The notes under the pieces: model-generated
Seen by the model: only the letters and a program-made list of their open reading frames with translations
The model's database searches: none
Told to the model about the DNA's origin: nothing
Assembly: GCA_001820095.1 (NCBI GenBank)
Contig: MHOO01000004.1
Coordinates: 1,749 to 65,748, forward strand
Origin: Candidatus Staskawiczbacteria bacterium RIFCSPHIGHO2_01_FULL_39_25
GTDB taxonomy: Bacteria; Patescibacteriota; Minisyncoccia; Minisyncoccales; Staskawiczbacteraceae
DNA: 64,000 bases
Direction of reading: 5' to 3'
Shown: piece after piece, positions 1 through 62,484 of the stretch
How positions within the stretch are numbered: position 1 is the stretch's first letter
How the letters are laid out: the number at the start of each line of letters is the position of its first letter
Translations under genes and position numbers: made by a program

Positions 1-1277
1 TATGTCCAAACTGTAAAAAAGCATTCAAAATTGACGAGGCGGGTTTTGCTGACATTGTTAAGCAGGTACGCGATCATGAGTTTGAAGAAGAGTTAAGTAA
101 GCGAGATGCGCTACTGAAGGCAGATAAAGAAAGCGCTATCAAACTTGCCGAGGAACGAACCAAGAATGCATTGAAAGATGACCTGACCAAAAAAGAAACT
201 GAAATCGCTAAACTCAAGGTAGAGAAAGAAAGTGCACTAGCTGTGCTCAAATCTCAAAAAGATGCTGAATTAGCTGAGTTAAAGGCTAAGGTTCAATCTG
301 CCGAAACTGAAAAAACGCTTGCTGTTACTGAGGCTGTGACGAAAGTTGAGAAAGAACGCACTAAACTTGCAACCGAAATAATAATTAAGGATAGTGAAAA
401 ACAGCAACTTGAATCGTCCTTGAAAGAAAAGTATGCCAATGAACTAAAGATAAAAGACGGCGAGATAAAAGCAAAAGACGAAATAATCGAGCGTTTCAAA
501 GACATGAAGGCCAGGCTTTCTACTAAAATGCTTGGTGAAACTTTGGAGCAACATTGTGAAATCGAGTTTAATAAAATTCGTGCTACTGGTTTTCAGAATG
601 CGTATTTTGAAAAGGATACTGATGTTAAGGCCGGTAGTAAGGGCGACTACATTTATCGAGAAACCAATACTTCTGGCAACGAAATTATATCAATCATGTT
701 CGAGATGAAAAATGAACAGGACGAAACTGCCACCAAGAAAAAAAATGAGGACTTTCTAAAAGAGCTCGATAAAGATCGGACTGAGAAAAAATGTGAGTAT
801 GCTGTTCTTGTATCGCTATTAGAAGCTGATAATGAGCTCTATAATAATGGCATTATTGACGTATCACACCGCTTCCCTAAGATGTATGTTATTCGCCCCC
901 AATTCTTCATCCCGATAATAACGTTATTACGGAATGCTGCTATGAAGTCCTTGGAATACAAAGCAGAACTCGCTATTATAAAAAGTCAAAACATTGATGT
1001 TACTAAATTTGAGGATCATTTAAACGATTTTCGCGAAGGATTTCGCCGTAACTTCAATCTTGCATCTGAAAAGTTTAAAACTGCCATAGAAAATATAGAT
1101 AAATCTATTGCACAACTTCAAAAAACTAAAGATGCCTTACTATTTTCCGAGAATAATTTACGTTTAGCTAATGATAAAGCCGAGGATTTAACCATTAAGA
1201 AGTTGACGCGGGGGAATCCGACAATGACAGCAAAATTTACTGAACTGAAAATTGATGAAAATAAATCAAAAACTTGA
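1..1277 (+). CDS. DUF2130-like protein, N-terminus off-window (CxxC zinc ribbon, long coiled coil, globular C-terminal domain)
   Basis: The frame of ORF 171..1277 stays open back to base 3 ([19 protein letters not shown]...). It has an E/K-rich coil and a C-terminal [15 protein letters not shown] block. The family call is from memory. Confidence 0.6.
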
Positions 1278-1379
1278 TATTGCATTAACTTTCTTTAGTA
1301 GAGGAATCGTGCTTGCTGATTGAGCCACAGAGATATTTTCCCAGAACCACGTTTGGATCACATCCCACTTCTCGCGCAT
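1266..1379 (-). CDS. short ORF family 1, copy A (37 aa, [23 protein letters not shown]...)
   Basis: The paralogous copy at 8839..9090 differs mainly at synonymous third positions. The ATG (1379..1377) lies exactly at the junction with element M. No clear promoter or SD of its own. Confidence 0.35.
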
Positions 1380-1517
1380 ATGGAAAAAGACTGTCTTGTA
1401 GACAGTCTTTTTCCATATATTCGATTGGGATTTGAAGGGCGCCGAGTTTCCTTGTTGACTTTGTGTGAGGCGCCTAGGCCGCGAGTCGGAGCGAGCGGAA
1501 ATCCCTTCGCTCGCGCA
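1379..1517. mobile_element. 139-nt hairpin-rich insertion element M, copy 1, bounded by TCGCGCA (1372..1378 and 1511..1517)
   Basis: Close paralog of identical length at 11640..11778. The uninterrupted junction TCGCGCA|TTCTTTC is seen at 11078..11091. It has three internal hairpins, including a 19-bp-arm palindrome at 1378..1418. Confidence 0.6.
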
Positions 1518-1523
1518 TTCTTT

Positions 1524-1576
1524 CAAAATCACCTTTTTAAGGTGATTTTGGTTATTTTGAAATTCTGTGTTATAAT
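1524..1576 (+). promoter_or_regulatory. module R1 copy 1: 12-bp-stem hairpin (1524..1550) plus extended -10 promoter TGtTATAAT (1568..1576)
   Basis: CAAAATCACCTT-ttt-AAGGTGATTTTG is a perfect palindrome. The TGn+TATAAT follows. The same module recurs at 11091..11155. Confidence 0.45.
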
Positions 1577-1582
1577 AAAACT

Positions 1583-1710
1583 GCAAAGGAAAATCCTCTG
1601 GCATATGATTTATCGGTAAAAATAAGGCGATTAAACAAAAAAAGCGATTGGGAGATTTCACCCGCCAAGAGGAACAATCCTTTGAGGTGCAAATCCCAGT
1701 CGCTTTTTGT
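1583..1710 (+). ncRNA. candidate short transcript or 5' leader ending in a terminator-like hairpin
   Basis: It lies downstream of the R1 -10 box. A 12-bp stem (1642..1653 / 1694..1705) encloses about 40 nt and is followed by a T-run. No credible ORF. It sits 50 nt upstream of the kinase gene. Confidence 0.3.
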
Positions 1711-1760
1711 TTGAAAGGTTGAAGTTGCCTTCATAATTATTCATTTAAGTTACAAAAATT

Positions 1761-2648
1761 ATGGAAGAAAAAGTAGGCAATAAAGAAGGCGACCAACCTA
1801 AGGTTTTGAATTTTACTGGAGAGGAATATTTGGAAGTCGGAGAGATTGCCAAACCATTTTGGGAAAAAGGAGTTTCCGAAAATTTGCCAAAGTTTGTTAT
1901 TTATATGGGAGGGGTCGGTTCTGGAAAAACAACTATGCGGAGGCATCATCAGTCAAGCGGCTATGTGCATTTTGATTTTGGAGAAATTTGCATAGCAATG
2001 GAAAAAGGATTTGGTAAAGATAATCCAAAGTTACCGAATTATGAACTCTTGGCTGGCTCTATGATTTTACAAGAAAGCGTAGAAGCCAAAAAGAACATCG
2101 TGATTGAAATTATTGGTGACGATGAAAAACTATTCATTCCTGTCATAAAAAAAATGAAGGAGATTGGGTATGAAACCTCTCTCCAATTTATTGCGTGTAA
2201 ACCCGAAGACGCATATGGGCGTCACTTAAAGGCTGTAGAAGAAGATAAAGATTATATCTCTTCTTTTTATACGCAAGAAGCTACCTTATCGTTCTTTTAC
2301 GAACAACTTCAATTAGGGAAAATGCCCGAAGCCGTAGAAAAGGATAAAAAATACTTAGTAAAAGTTGATGATAACTTTCACCCTATGGATACAGGTGAAG
2401 CATATGACGACAAGACCTATTCATCATTGGAAGAAGCAGTTAAGAGATGTAAAGAAATAACCATTGACAGCCTTATGCATTCCTATAAGAAGGGGATAAA
2501 TGCAAGTGAACTGTTAGAACAATGGATGGCATTCGGAGATGACCCGTTTGTTTATACTGGAGAAGGAGATTTGCCATTCTCTGCAAGAGATTTTGTTACA
2601 GAAGAATTATGCCTCTACATCATCAAAGAAATGGAAAATATAGAATAA
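1761..2648 (+). CDS. P-loop kinase-like protein (zeta-toxin/AAA-type N-domain) with an unknown C-terminal domain
   Basis: Walker A GGVGSGKTT near residue 50, and a hhhhD-type Walker B (IVIEIIGDD). AAATTATG start context. C-terminal 100 aa unassigned. Confidence 0.5.
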   Translation: MEEKVGNKEGDQPKVLNFTGEEYLEVGEIAKPFWEKGVSENLPKFVIYMGGVGSGKTTMRRHHQSSGYVHFDFGEICIAMEKGFGKDNPKLPNYELLAGSMILQESVEAKKNIVIEIIGDDEKLFIPVIKKMKEIGYETSLQFIACKPEDAYGRHLKAVEEDKDYISSFYTQEATLSFFYEQLQLGKMPEAVEKDKKYLVKVDDNFHPMDTGEAYDDKTYSSLEEAVKRCKEITIDSLMHSYKKGINASELLEQWMAFGDDPFVYTGEGDLPFSARDFVTEELCLYIIKEMENIE

Positions 2649-2650
2649 TT

Positions 2651-2873
2651 TGCTATACTCTACTTGGAATAGCCAGAGTTGATATTTTTGGGCATTCGGC
2701 TCAAAACATTGCTGTGTAATAAGTCCGTCATCCGCCTTTGTGCGGTGGATTTGCAAAGTTTGCAAAAGGTGCGGTTAAAAGTGGCGGTGGCTTACGGGTC
2801 TATCAAGAGTGCTACTCCAAAAAAGATTTTATTTTAGAAAAATATTAAAGGCCTTCCATTGGCCTTTTTTTGT
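2651..2873 (+). ncRNA. candidate ORF-less transcript: extended -10 TGcTATACT (2651..2659) to terminator (2848..2873)
   Basis: I found no ATG between about 2666 and 2850. There are internal CCGC..GCGG and TTTGCAAA palindromes. The terminator is AAAGGCC-ttccatt-GGCCTTT plus a T-run. Confidence 0.3.
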
Positions 2874-3051
2874 TTGGAATATGCGAAAATGCGTCTCGGG
2901 CGCGAGAGCGCAACGGAGATACCGCGGAAGGCCAAGGAAATGTATTTGGAAATAGAAATTACAATGAGATAAATAGGTTGAAATTTATGTCAAAAAGGAG
3001 TAAATTAAAGTAATTTCCCATCAAAATCTCCGCTAAAAGTAGGGAATAGTG

Positions 3052-3077
3052 AATACGCAAGACGCCTTGCGTATTCA
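3052..3077. repeat. 26-nt hairpin repeat AATACGCAAGACGCCTTGCGTATTCA, left copy
   Basis: Identical copy at 8816..8841. 10-bp stem with a 4-nt loop. The two copies bracket the R-M gene block. Confidence 0.8.
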
Positions 3078-3147
3078 AAGAGATGAATGGGGGGGTTGGG
3101 TGGTGCGTGGTCGGAGTAAAATCGTCAAAAAATGGTAAAATAGGAAT

Positions 3148-4905
3148 ATGAAAATAAAAGATTTGCCAAAAATTGATCGGCCAAGGGAAAAATTCCTTGA
3201 GAAGGGTTCAGATGCATTGACCAATAGCGAACTTTTGGCTATTTTGCTTGGCAGTGGAATAAAAGGAACGAATGTAAAAGTATTGTCCCAAAAGATCATC
3301 AAGAAATTTGGAGATAACCTGGTAAATGTTTCGGTTGAGGATTTAATGAAAATCTCAGGAATTGGAGAAGCCAAAGCTTTGCAAATCGCGTCCACTATGG
3401 CTTTAGCTAAAAGAATTTTTGATAAACAAAACTCGTTAGATAATTTAATTTTATCCGCGCAGGATGCGATAGATCTTGTATCGGATTTAAGAGATAAAAA
3501 GCAGGAACACCTAATTTGCCTTTATTTAAATGCTCGTAACGCTTTAATAAAAAAAGAGATCATTTCAGTTGGCATATTAGATAAAAGTATTTTTCATCCT
3601 AGGGAAGTTTTTGCTCCAGGACTAGAAATGCGCGCCGCAGGCGTTATCCTTGTTCATAATCATCCTTCTGGCGATCCAAATCCAAGCCAGCAAGACAAAG
3701 AGGTGGCTAAAAGAACCGTTGAGGCTGGAAAATTAATGGGCATCAATGTTATTGATTTTCTCATCATCGCAAAAAATGGCTCGCACAGCTTGCTTGGTGA
3801 TATTAAAAATATCCAATTAATAGATACTGGGTATGTCGCCGAAGGGTTCCAGGCCTCTTTGTTTGATTTGCTTACGGATGCGGACAACTCTCCTTCTGGC
3901 GTGAAAAATTTAGACAAAAATAAAAAGAGCGTGAGCACTTTGCGATTTATGGATTTTTGTGCGGGGATTGGCGGTGGTCGTCTCGGTCTTGAGAATTTAG
4001 GCTTAGAATGTGTCGGATTTTCAGAGATAGATAAGCATTCTGAAAGAACTTATAGAGAATTCTTTGGAGATAGAGAAAAAAATTATGGAGATTTGATGAA
4101 AATCAATCCAGGTGATTTACCCAATTTTGAAGTGATGATCGCCGGCTTTCCGTGCCAAACTTTTTCTGTTATGGGTCAGAGGAAGGGCATGAAGGATGAT
4201 AGGGGGCAGGTTATTTATGGTTTAATTAAAATAATGAAAGGTAAAGATCTGCCCTACTTTATATTAGAAAATGTAAAAGGATTAGTGAATCATAATAATG
4301 GCAACTCATTTAGAGTGATTTTAGATGAGCTAGATAAAGCCGGATATAAAGTTTATCCCAAGGTTTTGAGTAGTTTGAATCATGGCGTGCCGCAAATGAG
4401 AGAAAGAATTTATTTTGTGGGTGTCAGAAAAGACCTTGTTAAAAAAGGCAGAGAATTCAGGTGGCCAGATCCCGTCAAAACTCCTAAGGTGGCAGAGTAT
4501 TTAATTGATACCAGCAAGCTAGAATTTAACGAAAGAAAAAGATCATACGAAACATTTATAAAATTTATAGATAATAAATATAACAAAGGATTATTTAAGG
4601 TGGATGATTTACTAAAGCAAGAATATTTAATACTAGATACTAGGCAGTCAGACTTAAGATTATACAACGATAAAGTGCCAACACTTAGAACGGGCCGACA
4701 TGGTATTTTGTATGTTAAAAATGGTAAATTTAGGAGTTTATCAGGTTTTGAGGCGTTGCTTTTGCAGGGCTTTCCTAAGAGATTAGCAGAGAAGACGAAA
4801 AATAAAATTAATGATATTTATTTATTAAGCCAGGCTGGAAACGCCATGACAGTTAGTACGATTGAGTCTATAGGAAAAAACTTGCTAAATTATATACAAA
4901 GCTAA
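3148..4905 (+). CDS. fusion protein: N-terminal RadC/JAB (JAMM) domain + C-terminal C5-cytosine DNA methyltransferase
   Basis: RadC-like N-terminus with HNHPSGDPNPSQQD. This is followed by the m5C motifs FCAGIGG (I), FPCQTFS (IV), ENVKGL (VI), QMRERIYFVG (VIII) and GNAMTV (X), all in one uninterrupted ORF. Confidence 0.85.
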   Translation: MKIKDLPKIDRPREKFLEKGSDALTNSELLAILLGSGIKGTNVKVLSQKIIKKFGDNLVNVSVEDLMKISGIGEAKALQIASTMALAKRIFDKQNSLDNLILSAQDAIDLVSDLRDKKQEHLICLYLNARNALIKKEIISVGILDKSIFHPREVFAPGLEMRAAGVILVHNHPSGDPNPSQQDKEVAKRTVEAGKLMGINVIDFLIIAKNGSHSLLGDIKNIQLIDTGYVAEGFQASLFDLLTDADNSPSGVKNLDKNKKSVSTLRFMDFCAGIGGGRLGLENLGLECVGFSEIDKHSERTYREFFGDREKNYGDLMKINPGDLPNFEVMIAGFPCQTFSVMGQRKGMKDDRGQVIYGLIKIMKGKDLPYFILENVKGLVNHNNGNSFRVILDELDKAGYKVYPKVLSSLNHGVPQMRERIYFVGVRKDLVKKGREFRWPDPVKTPKVAEYLIDTSKLEFNERKRSYETFIKFIDNKYNKGLFKVDDLLKQEYLILDTRQSDLRLYNDKVPTLRTGRHGILYVKNGKFRSLSGFEALLLQGFPKRLAEKTKNKINDIYLLSQAGNAMTVSTIESIGKNLLNYIQS

Positions 4906-4906
4906 T

Positions 4907-5686
4907 ATGAAACAAATGAAAAAGAAAAATATTCTCGAAATGATTGCTCGCGGTTCTAAAACCGCGAAAGGTGGATTTAAGAATGAAAAGGATGTTATTA
5001 AAAAGTTTAATAATTGGGAAAAAGACGCTATCGCACAAAAATGGCTTGAAATGATGAACTATGATTTAAAGGATATTGAATATGTAAAAGCAACTAAGAT
5101 ACGCGGCCACTATAAGGCTGATATTCAAGTTAGGATTCAAATAGTAATTAAATTAAAATCTCAGTCAGATATACAAAATCTACAAGTAAAATTAGTTAGC
5201 AACCCTCAGGGATTTAATCAGATAGATAAAAGATGGGTTGATAAATACGCAGAAATGTGGAGCATCCCCGTAGATATAGTGAAACTGCTAAAACTTTTTA
5301 CTGGGGAGGCAAAACCAATAAGCAGTAAAATAAAAGATTCAAGAAGAATGCTTTTAACTGAACTTAAAATAGTAGATCAGCAAAAGGTTATTGATTTCTT
5401 CGACCATAATAAAATTCTGGTTATTTCAGATTTATTAAAAGGAAGGGGTGAATTTTCCGCTGATTGGGTTTTAGTGATCTTGAAATTGAAAAAGGAAAGT
5501 AGGTGGGTTTTAAGATCAATTAATGAAGCGATGAATGTTTTTGGAGGTGGCGACGTCAGAATAACGTCGCAGGGAGGTTTGAAAATCGGTAAGATTGGAA
5601 TGCAAAGAAAGGGTGGAGATAATGGGAGAGACAGCGCTAAAATGCTTCAATTTAAAATTAATCCAATTGAGCTCTTCAAGAATTAA
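4907..5686 (+). CDS. putative type II restriction endonuclease partnered with the adjacent m5C methyltransferase
   Basis: It starts 2 nt after the MTase stop and is followed by vsr. K-A-D-I-Q-V block. The C-terminal tail ..AKMLQFK resembles my recollection of the MspI-type tail, which is weak evidence. Confidence 0.5.
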   Translation: MKQMKKKNILEMIARGSKTAKGGFKNEKDVIKKFNNWEKDAIAQKWLEMMNYDLKDIEYVKATKIRGHYKADIQVRIQIVIKLKSQSDIQNLQVKLVSNPQGFNQIDKRWVDKYAEMWSIPVDIVKLLKLFTGEAKPISSKIKDSRRMLLTELKIVDQQKVIDFFDHNKILVISDLLKGRGEFSADWVLVILKLKKESRWVLRSINEAMNVFGGGDVRITSQGGLKIGKIGMQRKGGDNGRDSAKMLQFKINPIELFKN

Positions 5687-5691
5687 GTTTC

Positions 5692-6102
5692 ATGACCGAC
5701 ACTGTTTCCAAAAAGAAACGCAGTGAAATAATGTCCCGCGTTAAAAACAGAGACAGTAAAATAGAGATTCTTTTGAGAAAAAGATTATGGAAAGAGGGCA
5801 TAAGGTATAGAAAGAATGCAAATAAATATTTTGGTAAACCCGATATTGTCCTAAAAAGATATAAGGCAGTTATTTTTGTGGATTCTTGTTTTTGGCATGG
5901 ATGTAAAAAGCATTGTCGCATTCCTTCTATTCGTAAAAAGTATTGGGTAAACAAGATTTCTAGGAATAAAATTAGAGATAAAGAAGTGGGTAAATACTAC
6001 AAAAAAGTCGATTGGAGAATTTTAAGAGTATGGGAGCATGATATTGAGAAAAGTTTTGAAAAATCATTTTTTGAAGTGTTGGAGTTTCTAAAAGGAAAGT
6101 AG
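5692..6102 (+). CDS. vsr: very short patch repair endonuclease
   Basis: RSEIMSRVKNRDSKIE, GKPDIVL, FVDSCFWHGC and N..RD motifs typical of Vsr. It sits in an m5C MTase context. Confidence 0.9.
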   Translation: MTDTVSKKKRSEIMSRVKNRDSKIEILLRKRLWKEGIRYRKNANKYFGKPDIVLKRYKAVIFVDSCFWHGCKKHCRIPSIRKKYWVNKISRNKIRDKEVGKYYKKVDWRILRVWEHDIEKSFEKSFFEVLEFLKGK

Positions 6103-6106
6103 ATTT

Positions 6107-8263
6107 ATGAAAAAGCTGAAAGTAAAGCTAGAGAATTGCTATGGGATTAAAAAGCTAGGGCACAGCTTTGATTTTTCCAAACACAAAACATATTCAATTT
6201 ACGCTTCCAATGGCGTGATGAAAACATCTTTTACAAAGACCTTCTTGAGGCTAAGCGAAGGTAAAATGCCAGAAGAGTTAATTCATGGCTATCCGTCTGA
6301 ATATGAAGTAAAAATCGATGGGCAAACCATAGAGAAAGAGGCAATATTTGTAATTAAATCCTATATCAAAAGTTATCAATCGGGGAATATACATACCTTG
6401 CTAGTTGACGGGAAAAGTCAAAAAGAATACTACGATATCTACTCTGCCATATTGGAAGAAAAGAATAAATTACTGCCTAGGATAAATAAATTATCGGGCG
6501 TCAAGAAGGACGAAATAGAGCCGAAAGTTATTAGAGATTTTCAGAAAGAAAACTTTTTTGATATTTTAAAGGGATTAGAGGTAGATTCTATTAAGGAAGA
6601 TTTTTCAGGTATAAAATACGATGTCATTTTTAATGATGATAGTATTAAATTTCTTGAAAGTCCGGAAGTTTTAAAAAATATAAAAGAATACATAAAGATA
6701 TCTGACAAAATAATAAGCAATTCTAAGTTTTTTAAAAAAGGCACTTTTACTTCAATGAATGCTGACAATGTTGCAACCGCATTAAAAAAGGAAAACTTTT
6801 TTTCGGCAAAGCATGCTGTGAAGATAGATGGTCAGGCTGAGCTAATAGAAAGCGATAAAGATCTTGCTGCAAGGATAGCGACTGAAAGAAAGGAGATATT
6901 AACAAGCCCAGAATTGAAGAAGATAGAGGATGCTATTACCGCGAAGGCGGCAAACAGGTCTTTCAAGATTTTCCTAGAAGAGAATCCTGGTATTTTAAGT
7001 TATCTTGAGGCAGATAGATTGGGAGAACTTAGAAAAAACTTATGGAAGTCTTATTTCAAAAAAGAAAAAGCTTTATATATGGAGTTGATGGATAAATACA
7101 CTAAAGGTAAAAAAAAGTTAAATGAAATAGAGGAAAAAGCAGTTCAGCAAATGTCTATCTGGGACGAGGTGGTTAAAAAGTTTAAAAAAAGATTTTTTGT
7201 TCCATTCAATATAAGTATTGAAAATAGGAGAAGTGCAATAATAGGGAGAGAGTTGCCGAATATTTCTTTTCACTTTGATGATGGGAACTCAAAGCCAAGA
7301 AGTCTTAAAAGAAATGAGTTAGATAGCCTTGAGGCTTTGAGTCACGGAGAAGAAAAAGCTTTATATATTCTAAATATAATTTTTGAAATAGAGTCTAGGA
7401 AACGGGCAGGGCAAAAAACATTACTTGTGATTGATGATATTGCAGACTCATTTGATTATAAAAATAAATACGCCATCGTTGAATACCTTAAAGAAAACTC
7501 AAAGGAAAAAGACTTTTTCCAGATAATTTTGACTCACAATTTTGACTTTTTTAGAACTCTCAGGAGTCGCATTGATGGAGAGTGGGAAAACTATTTAATA
7601 GCACACAAGACTAGTACGGGAATTCTTTTAGAAAGCATTGTGGGTAAAAATATTATAGATCCCTTTGCGGCATGGAAGCTAAAATTAAAAGGTAACGGCA
7701 AAGAATTTATCGCTTCGGTGCCCTTTATTAGGAATTTAATTGAATATCTAGGTGAAGGCAGTGGTGAAAATCGTTACGAAAAATTAACGTCTCTTCTGCA
7801 TATTAAGAAAGGTATACCTGATATTGAAGTACAGGAATTGCATGATATTTTTAACAACACCCTAAATCCCAAAGTACAATTTCAAAAGATAGGAAGACAG
7901 CCAGTAAAGAAGTTAATTTATGATTTAGCTGACAGCATAGAAAAAGATAATTCAGAAACAATAAACTTGGAAAACAAGATTATCTTATCTATTGCCATTA
8001 GATTAGTAGCAGAGGAATTCATGTGGGCCAAAGTAACTGATTCCACTCCAATTAATGGCTCTCAAACAGGCTTATTGTTCGATAGGTTTTTAAAAGATTT
8101 TGAAACCAAAAAAGAAGAGAAGGGTAATATAGAAGTTTTGAGTAAGGTTGTGTTGATTACGCCTGAAAATATACACCTCAACTCTTTTATGTACGAGCCA
8201 ATTTTGGACATGTCTGATTTTGAACTGAAACAGCTATATAGTGAAGTAAAAATTTTAAAATAA
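6107..8263 (+). CDS. ABC/SMC-type (AAA_13-like) ATPase with a degenerate Walker A and an unassigned C-terminal domain
   Basis: IYASNGVMKTSF occupies the place of GxNGSGKT. Signature-like LSHGEEKALYIL, Walker B LLVIDDIADSFD and a central coiled region. The architecture recalls PrrC/RloC-type proteins. Confidence 0.6.
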   Translation: MKKLKVKLENCYGIKKLGHSFDFSKHKTYSIYASNGVMKTSFTKTFLRLSEGKMPEELIHGYPSEYEVKIDGQTIEKEAIFVIKSYIKSYQSGNIHTLLVDGKSQKEYYDIYSAILEEKNKLLPRINKLSGVKKDEIEPKVIRDFQKENFFDILKGLEVDSIKEDFSGIKYDVIFNDDSIKFLESPEVLKNIKEYIKISDKIISNSKFFKKGTFTSMNADNVATALKKENFFSAKHAVKIDGQAELIESDKDLAARIATERKEILTSPELKKIEDAITAKAANRSFKIFLEENPGILSYLEADRLGELRKNLWKSYFKKEKALYMELMDKYTKGKKKLNEIEEKAVQQMSIWDEVVKKFKKRFFVPFNISIENRRSAIIGRELPNISFHFDDGNSKPRSLKRNELDSLEALSHGEEKALYILNIIFEIESRKRAGQKTLLVIDDIADSFDYKNKYAIVEYLKENSKEKDFFQIILTHNFDFFRTLRSRIDGEWENYLIAHKTSTGILLESIVGKNIIDPFAAWKLKLKGNGKEFIASVPFIRNLIEYLGEGSGENRYEKLTSLLHIKKGIPDIEVQELHDIFNNTLNPKVQFQKIGRQPVKKLIYDLADSIEKDNSETINLENKIILSIAIRLVAEEFMWAKVTDSTPINGSQTGLLFDRFLKDFETKKEEKGNIEVLSKVVLITPENIHLNSFMYEPILDMSDFELKQLYSEVKILK

Positions 8264-8270
8264 GAAAACT

Positions 8271-8393
8271 ATGATTCAGCTAATTCTAATTTTCATTATC
8301 GGAGCTATGGTTGGATTTTTGGTGGCGTCGTGGGTTTGGTTTATGAGAAAATGGGGACAGCCACCATTTATTCGGAATGGTAAAGAAAGTTAA
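8271..8393 (+). CDS. small membrane protein (40 aa)
   Basis: MIQLILIFIIGAMVGFLVASWVWFMRKWGQPPF.. forms one TM helix. AAACTATG start context like the core genes. Too short for the ORF track. Confidence 0.35.
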   Translation: MIQLILIFIIGAMVGFLVASWVWFMRKWGQPPFIRNGKES

Positions 8394-8416
8394 GCGCGTT
8401 ATTTGCAAAAAATAAA

Positions 8417-8476
8417 TTTATTAAACTACTTGTGGTGAGTTTATTAAACTACTTGTAGTGAGTTTATTGAACTATG
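8417..8476. repeat. 23-nt tandem direct repeat, about 2.6 copies (TTTATTAAACTACTTGTGGTGAG)
   Basis: Copies at 8417..8439 and 8440..8462 differ by 1 nt. A partial third copy (8463..8476) contains the ATG of the downstream gene. Confidence 0.8.
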
Positions 8477-8812
8477 ACCTATTTATTAATTTTAATCCTT
8501 GGCGTGGTGGTGGCGGTTGCGTTTCTTTTTTGGATTGCTAAAAGGGAATCTAAACAATACGGGACCGGTACTGGCGAAGAGCTGGTGGGTATTTGTGTTT
8601 CGGCCATTGAAACCGCTTCACAAAAAGAGGGGCGCAAGCAAAGGGTGCTGGTCATGCTTCAGGAAAAAAACGGGCTTTCCAATGCTTATATCCGGAAAGT
8701 GTTGGGCGTATCCAGCCGTTCCGTTGTAAACTATATGGACGAACTTGAAAAAGAGGGGAAAGTTGAGCAGATTGGAAAAGTTGGCCAATCCGTAACCTAT
8801 CGGGCAAAATAG
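8474..8812 (+). CDS. membrane-anchored winged-helix (MarR/ArsR-like) DNA-binding protein
   Basis: N-terminal TM helix (LLILILGVVVAVAFLFWI) followed by a wHTH-like segment, LSNAYIRKVLGVSSRSVVNYMDELEKEGKV. Confidence 0.5.
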   Translation: MTYLLILILGVVVAVAFLFWIAKRESKQYGTGTGEELVGICVSAIETASQKEGRKQRVLVMLQEKNGLSNAYIRKVLGVSSRSVVNYMDELEKEGKVEQIGKVGQSVTYRAK

Positions 8813-8815
8813 CCC

Positions 8816-8841
8816 AATACGCAAGACGCCTTGCGTATTCA
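8816..8841. repeat. 26-nt hairpin repeat, right copy
   Basis: Identical to 3052..3077. It starts 4 nt after the stop of the wHTH gene, and its last 3 nt form the minus-strand stop of short ORF family 1 copy B. Confidence 0.8.
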
Positions 8842-9090
8842 TAGGTAGGGGAATCCCGCGCTGGCTGATTGTGCGATTGAGATGTTTTCCCAGAACTATA
8901 GACCTCTTGCAAAATAAGTTTTGACTGCAAATTGTATATTTCGGCCACAAATTCGCTATAATTTTTTACCGTATCCAGAGGATACGCTAAAAAATTCTAT
9001 CAAATTTGCATCTCAAAATCTTCAATTTTCGTTACAAAACTTATTTTGCAAGATGTCTTATGTTTGGACTACATCCCACTTCTCGCGCAA
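8839..9090 (-). pseudogene. short ORF family 1, copy B, split by a MITE-like insertion and carrying TTG instead of ATG
   Basis: LREKWDVVQT | MITE | FWENISIAQSAS.. aligns codon for codon with copy A. Six changes are synonymous and three are conservative. Confidence 0.45.
8897..9060. mobile_element. MITE-like palindromic element, variant TIR (CTTGCAAAATAAGTTTTG), copy M1
   Basis: Absent from the paralogous sequence at 1346..1351. It shares the core AAATTCGCTATAATTTT-hairpin-AAAATTCTATCAAATTT with the copy at 46142..46317. Confidence 0.6.
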
Positions 9091-9185
9091 ACTATTTACA
9101 CTCTATCATAATTATGGTAGAGTGTTTTTAGTTCCCAGACAACTAATCCTCGTAGGCAGCTATGCCTTAAATAGCAGGAGAGAAA

Positions 9186-9650
9186 ATGAACATGAATATG
9201 TCCGATCTTTGTCTTGCGTTTGCTCGCGAGACGAATCAGGATCTCCCAGAAGCCACAGAACAACTTACTAAACTTGTCCAAAGGATCCTTTTCAGTGAGC
9301 CAGATGATGGCCAGCCTTATACAAGAGATGACCTGGAACTTGCAGAATCCTATCGTCGTCTCGTTGCCGTCAGTGAGGCTTTAACCAAGATGGCGACTGA
9401 AGAAGGCGTTAAGGGTGAAGCAAGTAAATTAGTTTTCGAACTTGGGGTGCCCCATGGTGATTGCAGCGTTTCTGGTCTCGCTCGCACCGCGATTAGTATG
9501 GGTAGCCGAATTATCATGGATAGTCCCTGGATTCGCCTAGGTCAAATTGCTGATGATCTAGAGATCGAGGAGCGTCTAGATGTTCCAGCTGAACTTGTCA
9601 AAAGATATTTTCGATCAGGAGAAAATCTTTCATCTAGGGAAACAAAGTAG
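9186..9650 (+). CDS. hypothetical protein (154 aa), higher-GC orphan
   Basis: SD AGGAGA lies 6 nt upstream. GC is visibly higher than in the core genes. A terminator follows. No recognisable motif. Confidence 0.6.
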   Translation: MNMNMSDLCLAFARETNQDLPEATEQLTKLVQRILFSEPDDGQPYTRDDLELAESYRRLVAVSEALTKMATEEGVKGEASKLVFELGVPHGDCSVSGLARTAISMGSRIIMDSPWIRLGQIADDLEIEERLDVPAELVKRYFRSGENLSSRETK

Positions 9651-9664
9651 GATTCTACTTATTC

Positions 9665-9697
9665 GCCAGTTGCGTCGAGCAGCTGGCTCTTTTTTTA
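9665..9697 (+). terminator. intrinsic terminator
   Basis: CCAGTTG-cgtcgag-CAGCTGG followed by a T-run. Confidence 0.6.
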
Positions 9698-9772
9698 TTT
9701 TTCTAAATCTGGAATATAAATATACTCTTTTTCTTCTTGAATTATGGTTCTAACGTTGTTCACGACGTCGCG
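9695..9772 (-). pseudogene. short ORF family 2, copy C1 (RDVVNNVRTIIQEEKEYIYIPDLEK), start codon replaced by TAG
   Basis: It aligns with copies at 10990..11085 and 11542..11640, with many synonymous differences. The codon preceding CGC is TAG. An internal GTG is a possible start. Confidence 0.4.
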
Positions 9773-9775
9773 CTA

Positions 9776-9803
9776 TTGACTTTTTTAGTAAATATAATAT
9801 AGT
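9776..9803 (+). promoter_or_regulatory. candidate promoter TTGACT-16-TATAGT (module R3)
   Basis: -35 at 9776..9781 and -10 at 9798..9803, immediately right of the TCGCGC core and upstream of 9863..10639. Confidence 0.35.
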
Positions 9804-9862
9804 ATAAGTTGAGTAGGCCCTTTGACAGTTAAATTCACTTTTACCAGAGAAAGGATGTGTGT

Positions 9863-10639
9863 ATGCCAGCACCAGAAAAGGTTTATTTCTTCAATTCAAG
9901 CGAACGAGGCTTGTTTGTTGAAATTTACTTTCCTAAAAGGGCGGCTTACTACGGAGCAATCTTTAATGCTCTACGCAAAGGACATGACGAAAATTTGGTC
10001 AAGGAATACTTGAGAACAAGGGTAAAAGACTTAATCAATGAATTTCAGGCTTTTCCCGATTTGTTCAAGCCAAGCCGCTACATTTCACCCAAGTTTAGCC
10101 GCACCCTGCCCTCCATGGACGAAGCTCTTGGAAGGATTGAAATGTATAAATCTCCTTTCACGGGTTGGTCAACCTACTCCGTTGACGGCGTATGGTTTGA
10201 CGAAAGTAAAACCCCAGTAGAACTCATAGAAGAAGCGACCCAAGTGGTTCGTGTGATGTTTCGCTTTGATAATTCGTTTGCCAAACAAGCAGTTGACGAA
10301 GATTGCTCTGATGTTTTGCGGGCTATTCTCTTCTGGATTATTTCTCAGCATGGTCGTCTCTATGACCATAAGGTATGGGGCAAAGAGGAGCAAGCCCAGT
10401 TTATGGCAAGGCACAAGCCTTGGCCGAAAAAGAAAGAACTCTTTGCTAAAAAACACTACGCTGACATTGCAGTTGAAACGGGCAAATGGTTAGACAATCG
10501 GGAAATATTCATCTTTTGCTACCTTGTCAGGAATTTCTGGAAAAGGGTAGTGAGAGAGGAGATGCGGGAAGATGAAATCTGGGTTACGAGCTTGTTCGAC
10601 TTGGTGTTGAACGTGGTCAAGCCCACCAAACCCGTTTAA
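9863..10639 (+). CDS. hypothetical protein (258 aa), higher-GC orphan
   Basis: SD AAAGGA lies 8 nt upstream of the ATG at 9863; the ORF track starts at 9857. Protein-like composition with no recognisable domain. Confidence 0.6.
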   Translation: MPAPEKVYFFNSSERGLFVEIYFPKRAAYYGAIFNALRKGHDENLVKEYLRTRVKDLINEFQAFPDLFKPSRYISPKFSRTLPSMDEALGRIEMYKSPFTGWSTYSVDGVWFDESKTPVELIEEATQVVRVMFRFDNSFAKQAVDEDCSDVLRAILFWIISQHGRLYDHKVWGKEEQAQFMARHKPWPKKKELFAKKHYADIAVETGKWLDNREIFIFCYLVRNFWKRVVREEMREDEIWVTSLFDLVLNVVKPTKPV

Positions 10640-10674
10640 TTGGGTTTCTAACCCTCTCTGAAAGGAGAAAAACT

Positions 10675-10899
10675 ATGCTTTCCAAAGCAACGACTCAACT
10701 AACTGAGGAAGTGTTTGGGTATTTTGGCGAGGAAGATAAGCAAAAGGCAAAAAAAGAACCTGAAGCTCTTCTAATTTCTCTGCTCTTGGTTCTCAAGAGA
10801 GAGTTGCCCGATGTCTCCTCCATGTTAAGTGATGTTGAAGAAGCTCTCTACGAAGATAATCTCAAAAAAGCACGAGAGAGGCTTGTGCAGAGCAAATAA
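10675..10899 (+). CDS. hypothetical small acidic protein (74 aa)
   Basis: SD AAAGGAG upstream. It follows 9863..10639 after 35 nt, and a terminator follows. Confidence 0.55.
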   Translation: MLSKATTQLTEEVFGYFGEEDKQKAKKEPEALLISLLLVLKRELPDVSSMLSDVEEALYEDNLKKARERLVQSK

Positions 10900-10927
10900 A
10901 AACCCTAAAAAGGGTAAAAAAACAACA

Positions 10928-10964
10928 GACCCCAGTCGTCCTTTGGACTTCTGGGGCTTTTTTA
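10928..10964 (+). terminator. intrinsic terminator
   Basis: CCCCAG-15 nt-CTGGGG followed by CTTTTTTATTT. Confidence 0.65.
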
Positions 10965-10989
10965 TTTGCAAGCGGGAAAATTAGATAAA

Positions 10990-11085
10990 TTATACATTTG
11001 TCTTTTCTGGTATCAAATCTGGGATATAAATATATTCATTTTGGCATTCAATTGCAGTTCTAACATTGTTCACGACGTCGCGCAT
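10990..11085 (-). CDS. short ORF family 2, copy C2 (31 aa, MRDVVNNVRTAIECQNEYIYIPDL...)
   Basis: ATG at 11085..11083 inside the TCGCGCAT core. An AAGGTGA SD-like sequence lies within the R1 hairpin 10 nt upstream. Synonymous pattern against C1 and C3. Confidence 0.4.
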   Translation of the reverse strand: MRDVVNNVRTAIECQNEYIYIPDLIPEKTNV

Positions 11086-11090
11086 TCTTT

Positions 11091-11155
11091 CAAAATCACC
11101 TTTTTAAGGTGGTTTTTGTCGGCCAATTGGCGGATTATTTTTAAAGGGGTATAAT
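11091..11155 (+). promoter_or_regulatory. module R1 copy 2: hairpin (11091..11117) plus TATAAT (11150..11155)
   Basis: Homologous to 1524..1576. It lies upstream of the cupin gene. Confidence 0.45.
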
Positions 11156-11210
11156 AAAAATGCAGATTAGAAAGTCGATAGTTAAAATTAAACTCAAAAA
11201 GTGAAAAATA

Positions 11211-11549
11211 ATGGCAAAATTAGAAAGTAAAAAATTTGATTCTCCAGATGAAACTGTGAACATAGGAAGAGGTAAGGTTGAGGTTATTAGTCTAGGCGGT
11301 TTTAAGGTGAGAAAACTTACTTTGCAACCTGGTTGGAGATGGTCGGAAGATGTAAAACCGATGGCTAAGACTGAAAGTTGCAAAATACCACATCTTAATA
11401 TTCACATTTCTGGTAAACTGGGTGTAAAAATGGATGATGGTACCGAACAAGAATTTGGCTCAGGGGACGTTGCATTATTACCACCAGGCCACGATGGGTG
11501 GGTTGTTGGGAATGAACCAGCGATAATAATAGAACAAACCCCTACATAA
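11211..11549 (+). CDS. cupin domain protein
   Basis: Small beta-barrel pattern with G..W..H and GDVALLPPGHDGWVVGNEP, typical of single-domain cupins. Confidence 0.7.
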   Translation: MAKLESKKFDSPDETVNIGRGKVEVISLGGFKVRKLTLQPGWRWSEDVKPMAKTESCKIPHLNIHISGKLGVKMDDGTEQEFGSGDVALLPPGHDGWVVGNEPAIIIEQTPT

Positions 11550-11640
11550 AATTCAAAATCCCGAAAGTTAAATCTGGCATATAAATACACTCATTCTGTT
11601 GGTGTATAATATTTCTAACGTTGTTGACGACGTCGCGCAT
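11542..11640 (-). CDS. short ORF family 2, copy C3 (32 aa, MRDVVNNVRNIIHQQNECIYMPDL...)
   Basis: ATG at 11640..11638 at the junction with element M copy 2. It overlaps the cupin 3' end by 8 nt. Confidence 0.35.
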   Translation of the reverse strand: MRDVVNNVRNIIHQQNECIYMPDLTFGILNFM

Positions 11641-11778
11641 ATGGAAAAAGACTGTCTACAAGACAGTCTTTTTTCATATATCTGATTGGGATTTGAAGGG
11701 CGCCGAGTTCCTTTGTTGACATTGTGTGAGGCGCCCAGGCCGCGAGTCGAAGCGAGCGGAAATCCCCTCGCTCGCGCA
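11640..11778. mobile_element. 139-nt element M, copy 2, bounded by TCGCGCA (11633..11639 and 11772..11778)
   Basis: Same length as 1379..1517. The central 5 nt of the first hairpin are reverse-complemented (TACAA here, TTGTA in copy 1). Confidence 0.6.
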
Positions 11779-11788
11779 CAATAGTACG

Positions 11789-11852
11789 AACAGATCCTTC
11801 GGGGTCTGTTTTGTTTTGTAAATCTGGCATTTTGCTCTGAATTTGCTATAAT
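11789..11852 (+). promoter_or_regulatory. module R2: terminator hairpin (11789..11815), 12-nt partial L2 repeat (11819..11830), extended -10 TGcTATAAT (11844..11852)
   Basis: CAGATCC-ttcg-GGGTCTG plus a T-run. TAAATCTGGCAT repeats 11569..11580. The TGn+TATAAT lies upstream of 11990..12550. Confidence 0.4.
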
Positions 11853-11989
11853 AAAGCCGACCGAACGGCCTTAGCTGGAAATTGCCCAAGATCCCCAAAT
11901 TTGTTCCTGAAATCTTGATCTGGACCGAAGAGGTGCGTTGGTTGCACTTTTTATCCTGAACTTTAACAAACTTTATGTGAGGGACGCCC

Positions 11990-12550
11990 ATGATTTATGC
12001 CTTAACCCATGGATTTCGCGCTTCTGGCTATAATCCATCCCATACGAACGACGGGTTCGCGCAAATTTCCTACCTGCAAGACATTATTTTTACCCTTGAT
12101 GCTTTTATGGAATCGGTAAATATCAGGATGATTGTAACCGGAGAGGCAGACAAATGCATGGAAATTTCTCATATGCTCAAACCCCGCTTTCGCCATGTCA
12201 GTATAGTGTGCGACCCATTATTGGGGCCGATAGAATCAATTAGTTCCGAAGATGGAAAAGGAGTAGTAGTGACAAGGACAGGACAATTGCTTCCTCGCAG
12301 TCACTACAAAACGCTGTCTGAACATAAGGGGGCGCAGCGTTTTGCCTGGCAGATCGTCAAACAGTACTATGGTGATGAACCAAGGGGCGATAAAATCTTC
12401 TGCACCGGCAAACAGTTTATGGTTGCCCTAGGGTTTAAAGCATTCAAAATGGCTTCTATTTATAAGTTGAATCCGTATGCAAAGACCATAGAAACTATCT
12501 TAGAGGCGCATGTATTGCTGGCCGTACCCAAGATCTACCATGCTAAATGA
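11990..12550 (+). CDS. hypothetical protein (186 aa), higher-GC orphan
   Basis: SD GAGGGA lies 7 nt upstream and a terminator follows. No confident domain; an N-terminal LTHG is only faintly reminiscent of histidine phosphatases. Confidence 0.55.
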   Translation: MIYALTHGFRASGYNPSHTNDGFAQISYLQDIIFTLDAFMESVNIRMIVTGEADKCMEISHMLKPRFRHVSIVCDPLLGPIESISSEDGKGVVVTRTGQLLPRSHYKTLSEHKGAQRFAWQIVKQYYGDEPRGDKIFCTGKQFMVALGFKAFKMASIYKLNPYAKTIETILEAHVLLAVPKIYHAK

Positions 12551-16031: not shown

Positions 16032-16065
16032 TTGACTTGCCTCGCAGAATTTATTAATCTTTAAT

Positions 16066-16240
16066 TACCTTGAATTACGAAATGCACTATTAAAAAACAG
16101 TTTTCGGGTCTTTTTCCCAAATTCGGGTCGAAAATCCGCAATAATTCCAAAACGTAGCTTGCTACGTTTTGGAATTCTATCACATTTTCGCCTTCCAAAT
16201 TTAGAAAAAATACCGCGAAAGCATTTCGTAATCCAAGGTA
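16066..16240. mobile_element. MITE-like palindromic element, copy M2 (175 bp)
   Basis: 20-bp TIRs TACCTTGAATTACGAAATGC / GCATTTCGTAATCCAAGGTA. The internal second-order palindrome carries the central hairpin CCAAAACGTAGC..GCTACGTTTTGG. Confidence 0.7.
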
Positions 16241-37890: not shown

Positions 37891-38017
37891 AAATTATCCT
37901 ATGAATTACGAATCTTAGCGAATTACGAATACGTTTTAAAATTTTGTACTTTCATTTTATAGGTTAATGAAAATCAAAACAAGTGTTGCTAAAATTTGTG
38001 AGTATGATATTGTTTAG

Positions 38018-38097
38018 TTACCTTGAATTACGAAATGCTTTCATGGGAAAAGACCCGAAACTCGTTTTTTCAAGGTGCATTTCGTAATTCAAAGTAA
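38018..38097. mobile_element. MITE-like element, short copy M3 (80 bp)
   Basis: TIRs TTACCTTGAATTACGAAATGC / GCATTTCGTAATTCAAAGTAA. Internal GAAAAGACCCGAAA is the reverse complement of TTTCGGGTCTTTTC in the long copies. Flanks are TTTAG|..|TTAG. Confidence 0.7.
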
Positions 38098-38120
38098 TTA
38101 GTTCTTTTAGGAGGCAAGCT

Positions 38121-46090: not shown

Positions 46091-46141
46091 TAAGGACATG
46101 CAAACAGATCTATTGATTATGCATAATTTGTGTTATATAAT

Positions 46142-46317
46142 ATCTTTGAATTACGAAATGCCCATTTAAAACGTTTTTTCGGGTCTTTTCCCAGAATTTG
46201 GGCTATAAATTCGCTATAATTTTCAGGCGGACGCGTTGCGTAAGCCTGAAAATTCTATCAAATTTCTATCTCCAAATTCTGGAAAAATACCGCGAAAGCA
46301 TTTCGTAAATCAAAGAT
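46142..46317. mobile_element. MITE-like palindromic element, copy M4 (176 bp)
   Basis: TIRs ATCTTTGAATTACGAAATGC / GCATTTCGTAAATCAAAGAT. Core AAATTCGCTATAATTTT-CAGGCGGACGCGTTGCGTAAGCCTG-AAAATTCTATCAAATTT. Confidence 0.7.
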
Positions 46318-46421
46318 ATTTATTTGATTTTAAGAACAAGTGAATTGGGCCCCCACACCATAAATTCAAAAAATTTTGGTGTAGGGGTGAAGTAGAACGC
46401 TGGAGTGTACATAACTTTGGT

Positions 46422-46632
46422 GGGCTCATAGTTCAGTGGTAGAACGCTGTCTTGCACAGCTTTTATGGGGGGCCCGTAGTTCAGTGGTAGAACGCTGTCC
46501 TGATAAGACAGAGGTCAAAGGTCCGATTCCTTTCGGGCCCACCATAAAAGCTGGAAAATTAACATTTAGAAAAATAAACAGAAAATTTTCCTAAGACAGA
46601 GGTCGAAGGTCCGATTCCTTCTGAGCCCACCA
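46422..46632 (+). tRNA. interrupted tRNA: 5' half 46422..46456 and 3' half 46593..46629 plus CCA, with a 136-nt intervening sequence in the anticodon loop (anticodon GCA/Cys most parsimonious, ambiguous)
   Basis: Acceptor GGGCTCA/TGAGCCC is 7/7 paired. The D arm and anticodon stem CTGTC/GACAG match the inner tRNA. T arm GAAGG-TCCGATT-CCTTC. The leader/trailer helix CATAACTTTGGT/ACCAAAGTTATG is 12 bp. Confidence 0.55.
46470..46544 (+). tRNA. tRNA-Ile(GAU)-like, 72 nt plus encoded CCA, nested inside the interrupted tRNA
   Basis: GGGCCCG-TA-GTTC-AGTGGTA-GAAC-G-CTGTC-CTGATAA-GACAG-AGGTC-AAAGG-TCCGATT-CCTTT-CGGGCCC-A-CCA. The T loop is atypical (C at position 55). Confidence 0.7.
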
Positions 46633-62393: not shown

Positions 62394-62452
62394 ACTTTGA
62401 ATTACAAAATGCTTTCATGGTATTTTTATTGGGCATTTCGTAATTCAAAGTT
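62393..62452. mobile_element. MITE-like element, minimal copy M5 (60 bp)
   Basis: TIRs AACTTTGAATTACAAAATGC / GCATTTCGTAATTCAAAGTT. Flanks are GTAA|..|GTAA. Confidence 0.65.
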
Positions 62453-62484
62453 GTAAGATCTTATTGCAAGCCTTGTCATATACT

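Follow-up and report, generated by a model that had tools for sequence, protein, structure and literature searches.

Short direct-repeat modules in a Candidatus Staskawiczbacteria contig: candidate detached tails of large serine recombinase genes

We analyzed a 64,000-nt stretch of contig MHOO01000004.1 (positions 1,749 to 65,748, hereafter "the window") of Candidatus Staskawiczbacteria bacterium RIFCSPHIGHO2_01_FULL_39_25, an uncultured groundwater member of the candidate phyla radiation (CPR), with a focus on the short repeat module L1. An earlier note on this DNA had described L1 as a short-ORF family (ORF, open reading frame), two direct copies of which bracket an accessory block of 7.5 kb; we instead propose that L1 may be the detached 3′ tail of a large serine recombinase (LSR) gene. 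The copies lie at 1290-1378 (L1A) and at 8842-8896 plus 9061-9089 (L1B). With the insert of L1B removed, they share ~80% column identity over ~90 nt, have the same orientation, and end in the same core, TCGCGCA. An exact 18-nt block (CATCCCACTTCTCGCGCA) is found in the window only at 1361-1378 and 9072-9089, with 0 occurrences expected by chance, and together with the alignment it confirms the direct repeat at both positions. The gene content between the copies is also as previously described: a zeta-like kinase, a RadC-Dcm methylase, R.HinP1I, Vsr, an SMC-like ATPase, and a helix-turn-helix (HTH) protein.

On the minus strand, the two copies differ by 6 synonymous changes and 3 conservative replacements (M/L, I/V, and V/I), the same count as obtained before. 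The L1A frame, with its stop codon at 1266-1268, extends into the 3′ end of the DUF2130 gene. In contrast, L1B is a decayed copy, because, after removal of its insert and one TAT, it has TTG as codon 1, a TAG at the codon for Trp-11 of L1A, and a 2-nt insertion after codon 23. The insert is a miniature inverted-repeat transposable element (MITE), as indicated by its inverted ends, target duplication, small size, and lack of an ORF. The TTG codon and the splitting by a MITE had been recognized before, whereas the limits given for the MITE, 8897-9060, need adjustment: the element proper occupies 8900-9058, and the target duplication TAT stands at 8897-8899 and 9059-9061. The MITE is present in all contigs of the same population that cover the site.

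The L1 pair belongs to a larger array. Seven modules (two of L1, three of L2, and two of L3) lie in one orientation within 1290-11778, and all seven end on the plus strand in TCGCGC(A/T) (Table 1). The TCGCGCA sequence occurs 16 times in the window, versus 5.0 expected, and 7 of the 16 occurrences fall within 1372-12063. As the L1 copies are merely two of the seven same-orientation modules in a 10.5-kb array, they are not the dedicated brackets of one mobile block. Terminator-like hairpins stand straight after the cores that end M, L1B, and M′, and promoter-like sites follow those of L2a, L2b, and M′. The plus-strand order of each core-to-core unit thus appears to be terminator, promoter, gene(s), L module, and core. 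L1A closes the DUF2130 unit, and 1379-9089, probably one or two cassettes, consists of two core-to-core units: the 139-bp gene-less element M and a 7.5-kb unit that holds the zeta-like, restriction-modification, and HTH genes and the RNA-like element and is closed by L1B.

Element M is strongly structured (z = -7.2 relative to shuffled sequences), and its minus strand contains a short L3 tail-like frame (MRERRDFRSLRLAA), which ends in a second core at 1511-1517. Its copy at 11633-11778 is 92% identical. A second M-type gene-less unit comes after the L1 core at another CPR locus (L104, 7320 to ~7150, minus strand); it has a hairpin and a ~100-nt module with CCCGCGCAT at its end. Gene-less units are therefore not confined to the window. 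M adjoins L1A at one site and L2c at the other, and module R1, the first 42 nt of which are repeated at 11078-11119, adjoins M and L2b. These combinations bear out the earlier proposal that L and R modules have been shuffled at the core. The accompanying statement that L1A and an L2 copy share the same upstream R1 needs correction for L1A, which itself adjoins M; R1 comes after M. Upstream of L2a (9774-9895), a tblastn extension was considered as a recombinase remnant and rejected, as it has stops and is unconvincing.

Table 1. Positions of the L modules, associated elements, and enclosed genes in the window
Feature	Position	Strand	Details
L1 copy A (L1A)	1266..1379	-	conserved part 1290-1379 = 30 codons; nhmmer 93 bits; module end 1378
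Core TCGCGCA at L1A/M junction	1372..1378		minus strand TGCGCGA
Element M, gene-less	1379..1517		139 bp; 41-nt perfect hairpin 1379-1419 plus G+C-rich structured part; end of L3 in M, 1517
Module R1	1518..1585	+	terminator-like hairpin 1523-1551, then TATAAT 1571-1576
Zeta-toxin-like P-loop kinase gene	1761..2648	+	weak Pfam match, 27 bits
Conserved ORF-less RNA-like element	2651..2824	+	174 nt; 80% identical to L087 8057-8230 (-)
Restriction-modification block	3148..8263	+	RadC-Dcm fusion 3148-4905; R.HinP1I family endonuclease 4907-5686; Vsr 5692-6102; SMC-like ATPase 6107-8263
Winged-helix HTH gene	8474..8812	+	last gene before L1B
L1 copy B (L1B), decayed	8842..9090	-	8842-8899 + 9059-9090, MITE between; module end 9089
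MITE in L1B	8900..9058		159 bp; 24-nt terminal inverted repeats, 1 mismatch
Core TCGCGCA, right end of L1B	9083..9089		terminator-like hairpin next, 9098-9125
L2 copy a (L2a), (TAG)RDVVNNVRTIIQEEKEYIYIPDL	9704..9775	-	degenerate core TCGCGCT; module end 9773; promoter-like site 9776-9803 next
L2 copy b (L2b), MRDVVNNVRTAIECQNEYIYIPDL...	11012..11085	-	core 11078-11084, then R1; module end 11084
Promoter-like site after the L2b core	11127..11155		
L2 copy c (L2c), MRDVVNNVRNIIHQQNECIYMPDL...	11567..11640	-	core 11633-11639, then M′; module end 11639
Element M′, second copy of M	11640..11778		ends in core 11772-11778; end of L3′ in M′, 11778
3′ of M′			terminator-like hairpin 11788-11811, promoter-like site 11824-11852

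This arrangement could be that of an integron-like array, in which the L modules would be attC-type sites that act as folded single strands and are cut by a tyrosine recombinase at the 7-nt core. The single orientation, the closure of each unit by a 70-90-nt family repeat and a 7-nt core, the cores on both sides of the gene-less M, and the shuffling of L and R modules all agree with this explanation, as does the length of the identical core, since 7 nt is typical of tyrosine recombinases. However, L1 and L2 fold no better than shuffled sequences on either strand (z = -0.82 to +2.19) and lack covariation, and these fold scores rule out attC-like hairpins. Moreover, the core is TCGCGCA rather than GTTRRRY, the units appear to have promoter-like and terminator-like sites of their own, and the modules bear the codon signature described below. 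Neither the family searches, which covered some of the window ORFs, nor the gene tables of the flanks in related strains brought an integrase to notice. We regard the integron-like explanation as highly improbable.

L1 was compared with copies at other CPR metagenome loci. True copies occur at at least 10 of them (L031, L087/L088 with three, L097/L103, L098, L100, L104, L105, and L106), found by a metagenome scan and by the one real match of a genome scan. The latter, a search of species genomes with a degenerate L1 pattern, gave 77 matches; 76 of them arose by chance in unrelated phyla, and only L031 was real. L1 is always antisense and located 3-25 nt past the stop codon of a convergent gene (384 nt once, in L100), and the convergent neighbors are unrelated to each other: DUF2130, HTH, TauE, ROK, C39 peptidase, ABC ATPase, and unknown proteins. 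On the far side of L1 stands CGCGCAT, followed in most copies by a hairpin with A and T runs. The conservation of L1 spans the core to the stop codon and extends no further.

The nine ungapped L1 copies, which come from several genomes, vary at 20 of the 30 third codon positions, as compared to 10 first and 7 second positions. Their codon differences in the peptide frame number 273 synonymous versus 161 non-synonymous, with 0 stops, indicating purifying selection on the L1 peptide and confirming the codon-like substitution pattern previously noticed on the minus strand. The best rival frame, on the plus strand and sharing the wobble positions, was rejected, with 171 synonymous versus 223 non-synonymous differences and 2 stops. 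Between the orthologous loci L097 and L105, L1 is conserved approximately as well as the flanking genes, and the pairing of the hairpin is kept by compensatory changes. Broken copies are also present, with a 2-nt insertion in L105, a 1-nt insertion at position 316 of L088, and AAG in place of the first codon in L106.

Is L1 then a gene of its own? According to this explanation, L1 and L2 would be free-standing genes for proteins of 25-37 aa, such as regulatory peptides or ones similar to type I toxins. They would be maintained opposite the 3′ ends of their neighbors, the transcripts of which would act as antisense RNA. The protein-level substitution pattern with its lack of stops is consistent with such genes, as are the ATG found at 12 of the 18 tabulated junction codons (L1, L2, and L3 together) and the 3′ arm of the hairpin, which places a Shine-Dalgarno-like GGTGA or GGCGA 6-10 nt before the ATG in several copies. 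Nevertheless, the hairpin and its T run, 2-10 nt upstream, leave no room for a promoter. The first codon is mostly ATG, but it is GTG, TTG, AAG, or TAG in other copies, and AAG or TAG stands there even in otherwise intact ones. The M hairpin-L1A junction, L100, and L104 have no Shine-Dalgarno-like sequence, and, for most copies, inspection of the upstream sequence by eye showed neither a promoter nor a Shine-Dalgarno sequence. An exhaustive search of 1.84 billion representative proteins recovered L1 in nothing but spurious read-through ORFs, and likewise eliminated the idea that L1 is the end of a longer conserved protein. Finally, at many loci the frame runs into serine recombinase remnants. 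Because of the upstream hairpin, the frequent lack of a Shine-Dalgarno sequence, the variable first codon, and the restriction to read-through ORFs, we consider a small gene quite unlikely. A recombinase tail accounts for the purifying-selection signal equally well.

The short and scattered copies, tied to terminators and found in mosaic L/R combinations as in bacterial interspersed mosaic elements (BIMEs), might alternatively be a non-autonomous dispersed repeat of the repetitive extragenic palindrome, BIME, or MITE kind, with an incidental link to recombinases. However, the L modules lack terminal inverted repeats, any target duplication besides the core, and secondary structure. Their codon-periodic constraint and their in-frame continuity with recombinase C-termini also speak against a dispersed repeat, which we judge very unlikely. 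In addition, we rejected the L modules as tRNA-like or other RNA genes, as ARAGORN and Rfam gave nothing and there is neither covariation nor a fold better than those of shuffled sequences, and a resemblance to an antisense tRNA T-arm, noticed by eye, was dropped as unsupported.

How are the L modules connected to recombinases? The L2 peptide is the C-terminal end of ORFs with the upstream sequence ...IFESSEP.EKRA.LNFLLQN....GKKL.F.L..PF..VLELA.CP.(W/G)LR. A profile of this upstream region retrieved 267 proteins with E <= 1e-3, nearly all of which are 80-225 aa long and derived from CPR bins. Among these 267, the Resolvase domain was found in one and Zn_ribbon_recom in one (remnants P0037 and P0083, with PF00239 and PF13408). 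Beyond the common ...LELA.CP.(W/G)L(R/P), the tails are of several types: among the retrieved proteins, a motif count gave 41 tails of the L2 type and 19 that represent an antisense tRNA 3′ end (GQDSNLRP), and other tails have an LD.FRT.DW... pattern. In-frame continuity of an L tail with a recombinase C-terminus was observed in ~20 retrieved ORFs (22 in the motif count).

The domains of a large serine recombinase are found together at related loci, not in the window. A Kaiserbacteria contig (L113) contains an intact 507-aa ORF (7155-8678) with Resolvase (PF00239, 78 bits), Recombinase (PF07508, 53 bits), and Zn_ribbon_recom (PF13408, 35 bits) domains. The last 14 codons of this ORF are antisense tRNA-Asn, and the ORF parts from its L2-tailed relatives just after the common Trp-Leu-Arg, approximately two codons beyond the tRNA 3′ end. 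Among the cargo genes of the island at this tRNA-Asn are those for a DNA methylase and a ResIII helicase. A search for a direct repeat of the tRNA 3′ end, or for a tail, at the opposite end of the island found neither within 8 kb.

The same connection was observed for L1. In L087, the L1 frame extends upstream into 83 codons, which match the LSR C-terminal profile in register (hhalign E = 2e-4), and L031 retains a weaker trace of this recombinase arm. Because the frame continues upstream into the arm, the L1 "ATG" at those loci reads as an internal Met/Val/Leu codon of the recombinase ORF. L1 thus seems not to be a short gene of its own, given this continuation and the variation of its first codon. 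Furthermore, the arm that bears L1 in L087 bears an L2 tail in L133, and therefore the L1 and L2 tails have been swapped exactly at the core. There is also a resemblance, and no more than that, between the M frame, MRERRDFRSL..., and the LRGWRDDFRTFEWEKV tail that a different L133 remnant bears. In comparisons of the tail-family profiles, all in register, L1 versus L4-like gave E = 0.14, L1 versus L2 gave E = 0.28, and L2 versus L4-like gave E = 0.003; these alignments were not significant and did not establish homology among the tail families.

Exchange at the core is also visible between loci. L087 and L098 are 85.6% identical over 1064 nt, comprising the tail and the ROK gene; the identity begins 1 nt before the first codon of L1, and across the core the left flanks are unrelated. 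From core to core, L087 contains what reads as a decayed whole element, made up of a hairpin, the core, the L1 tail, the convergent ROK and GH15 genes, a recombinase remnant, the core, and the next L1 tail. The cargo is thereby flanked by recombinase fragments, with the tail at 424 and the remnant at 3305-3553, while the window has seven tails and no body. The order in L087 matches the predicted structure of an integrated element with its crossover inside the recombinase ORF. We therefore lean toward the view that L1 is a detached tail, namely the last ~30 codons and the stop codon of an LSR gene. L2 would likewise be a detached LSR tail, and the short L3 in M probably is as well.

On the basis of these comparisons, we propose the following mechanism. 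For this family of CPR recombinases, the crossover site would be the core within the recombinase ORF, ~30 codons before the stop codon, and here it would be represented by ...TGCGCG(A) at the Leu/Met/Val-Arg codons. Recombination at the core would part the recombinase body from its tail. The tail would remain with the convergent cargo gene that ends beside it, and its new neighbor would be the sequence that had bordered the target, in most cases a terminator hairpin. The body of the recombinase would then read into the target, which may be a tRNA 3′ end or the tail of an earlier unit. Repeated integration and exchange at the cores would finally produce an array of terminator-promoter-gene(s)-tail-core units, such as the window array at 1290-11778, with seven tails and no recombinase body. 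We infer that an LSR performs the crossover at the core, that the tails are the element-side arm of the site, and that the recombinase-less units are moved by a recombinase acting in trans or are fossils. The L modules, detached at a crossover inside the recombinase ORF, would then be a serine counterpart of the archaeal "suicidal" integrases, a reading that we rate slightly better than an even chance. The earlier note is partly supported: the recombination at the core is real, but L1 is most probably not a small gene, and its two copies belong to an array instead of forming a dedicated pair of island ends.

Several observations weigh against detached tails. Every window unit starts with a hairpin or a promoter at the core, and not with a recombinase 3′ end, which would require mobilization in trans or events that cannot be reconstructed here. 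A tblastn search of the 64-kb window with eight recombinase fragments detected the L1 and L2 tails only, and no recombinase gene or remnant; hence the enzyme for the window array is unseen. L-type tails were not found on any intact recombinase; the L-tailed matches listed are all <=225 aa, and protein and DNA pattern searches of viral contigs yielded no intact elements. The homology of L1 to other tail families is not significant alone (hhalign E = 0.14). The conserved core, at 7-8 nt, is more typical of tyrosine recombinases and is unusual for serine recombinases, since 2 identical bases suffice for the latter. No alternative L1 junction was seen among the 47 population contigs described below. 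Lastly, chromosomal remnants of recombinases frequently remain connected to an L tail (L109, L133, and L135), and therefore the tails could equally be the target-side arm.

In this last case, the L modules would be the target-side half of an att site, forming conserved "landing pads" downstream of host genes, comparable to tRNA 3′ ends. The array would represent used and empty targets, and the recombinase ORF would read into L since its gene sits at the edge of the integrated element. Consistently, the L113 recombinase reads into a host tRNA where other copies read into L2, and remnants joined to L tails are common in chromosomes. However, a DNA target has no reason for conservation from the core to the stop codon or for variation mainly at the third codon positions of the recombinase frame, and the location of L so close to the stop codons of unrelated convergent genes is left unexplained. 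Moreover, the tails of diverged remnants share an in-register LR..D.(V/F)RT, which is protein-like, although the statistics are weak. We consider landing pads rather unlikely, and retain the detached recombinase tail as our preferred reading. More broadly, we tentatively suggest, with somewhat less than even confidence, that CPR bacteria (Parcubacteria and relatives) harbor an LSR family with the att site in its own ORF, in which each integration would detach a tail of ~30 codons, exchangeable tail-closed cassettes without a recombinase would form integron-like arrays of defense and accessory genes, and recombinase bodies landing beside a tail would be re-completed by it. Such a family would combine a bacterial serine-recombinase counterpart of the archaeal suicidal integrases with a cassette system.

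Contigs of the same population came from many samples and two NCBI bins; 20 of them carry the read-through ORF at 1266-1601, 24 the zeta-like gene, and 23 the HTH gene. The 47 contigs that include the zeta or the HTH gene all align collinearly with the window, with 99.3-100% identity, and consequently the presence/absence variation of the block that the earlier note had proposed to look for was not seen. The minus-strand ORF at 1266-1601 is identical to the 112-aa "hypothetical protein" A3A98_03205 of Candidatus Staskawiczbacteria at NCBI, which is almost certainly a read-through of R1, M, and L1A and not a gene; many of the short CPR "hypotheticals" retrieved in this analysis are of this type. 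Several NCBI, ENA, and JGI contigs stop at 11556-11604, in or just before L2c and beside the repeated M′; the M and L repeats are breakpoints in the assemblies of this population. In one contig (L127 5231-5379, ERZ28563557 scaffold_4914), agreement with the window ends exactly at 9703/9704, where L2a has its outer edge, and unrelated, A+T-rich, repeat-like sequence (…TTACGAAATACGAATG…) takes over, representing either an insertion variant or an assembly join. Another population contig (L085/L122) has a different sequence of 34 nt instead of 78 nt at 1074-1152, in the 3′ part of the DUF2130 gene.

The restriction-modification genes of the enclosed block have a G+C content of 0.32-0.34, as compared to ~0.39 elsewhere in the window. 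The same 24-nt hairpin, AATACGCAAG(A/G)CGCCTTGCGTATT, is located at 3053-3078, 5′ of the RadC-Dcm gene, and at 8816-8839, in the gap between the HTH gene and L1B. The core TCGCGCA (1372, 1511, 9083, 11078, 11633, and 11772) includes GCGC, the recognition site of R.HinP1I, the family of the endonuclease encoded in the block beside a Dcm-type methylase and Vsr. This overlap is probably a coincidence, because similar cores occur in genomes without the HinP1I system. The RNA-like element between the kinase and RadC-Dcm genes has a promoter-like site (2632-2659) at its start, and its 5′ and 3′ ends look complementary by eye. In another CPR genome (L087), its counterpart precedes a gene for a reverse transcriptase-trypsin fusion by ~280 nt. 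Rfam gave no match for the element, which may be a retron- or DRT (defense-associated reverse transcriptase)-type non-coding RNA, here without its reverse transcriptase.

Other repeats are located farther from the array. The gene for tRNA-Ile(GAT) at 46470-46544 stands between a 5′ tRNA half (46418-46454, 89% identical) and a 3′ half (46592-46632, 90%), and the region 46418-46632 looks as if one tRNA gene had been split in the anticodon loop by an insert bearing another. A repeat family with the motif TTGAATTACGAAATGC, found in both orientations at 16055-16236, 38008-38115, 46131-46313, and 62420-62471, is probably another MITE family. On the plus strand, 39202-43359 encodes a 1385-aa ORF with at least seven tandem repeats of ~270 nt (~90 aa), which are 63-82% identical.

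CPR genomes are tiny, and the gain and loss of their accessory genes are little understood. If our proposal is correct, then the L modules are footprints of site-specific recombination, from which the limits of mobile units could be read straight off metagenome assemblies. As for annotation, CPR bins contain hundreds of short "hypothetical proteins" that are decayed recombinase C-termini or spurious read-through ORFs over repeat modules, A3A98_03205 being one example.

Which known systems do these modules resemble? Genomic islands at tRNA genes likewise place accessory and defense cargo between direct repeats, with a recombinase at the edge that reads toward the target, as in L113. In contrast, the window repeats are not tRNA-derived, the L1 copies are only ~80% identical, and neither a tRNA gene nor a recombinase adjoins them; ARAGORN and Rfam detected one tRNA in the window, at 46470. 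In integrons, attC sites fold as imperfect hairpins (R′′-L′′/L′-R′), and the tyrosine integrase IntI acts on them and on attI, with the core GTTRRRY. The single orientation, the short core, the family-like modules of 60-140 nt at the 3′ end of each unit, and the ORF-less cassettes are shared features. However, the modules here lack hairpin symmetry, use another core, appear to have their own promoter- and terminator-like sites, and represent coding remnants, and no IntI-type integrase was noted among the window ORFs that were scanned.

The staphylococcal cassette chromosome (SCC) elements use the LSRs CcrAB or CcrC, their direct repeats lie where rlmH has its 3′ end, and pseudo-SCC elements, which lack a recombinase, are mobilized in trans. 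The LSR enzyme, the tandem cargo units between short direct repeats bearing the crossover, and the many units without a recombinase are common to both systems. In SCC, however, the repeats derive from the target gene rlmH, the recombinase ORF is unsplit, and there is one fixed chromosomal site, whereas the L modules occur at many sites, downstream of different genes.

The closest parallel to the proposed splitting is found in the SSV (Sulfolobus spindle-shaped virus)-type "suicidal" tyrosine integrases of archaeal viruses and plasmids, in which the att site lies in the ORF, and the gene is split on integration and can re-form as a hybrid (Badel et al. 2020, PMC7253208). Under the proposed mechanism, the site would here too lie in the recombinase's own ORF, and the split fragments would border the integrated element, as observed in L087. 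Hybrid re-joining also has a counterpart here, in the recombinase arm with either an L1 or an L2 tail. Moreover, tRNA genes are among the targets, and leftover fragments pile up in chromosomes. None of the papers that our literature searches covered describes an equivalent for serine recombinases or for CPR bacteria. The enzyme here is an LSR (Resolvase, Recombinase, and Zn ribbon) and not a tyrosine recombinase, and thus does not belong to the SSV family; the host is a CPR bacterium and not an archaeon, and the window contains tails only, in an array of seven. Since the enzyme class and the host domain differ, the resemblance is one of functional analogy and not of membership. Another difference is that the last ~30 codons alone would be detached here, and the recombinase body may therefore stay active. 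If the proposed splitting is correct, the recombinase-splitting principle of archaeal viruses recurs with another enzyme class in another domain of life.

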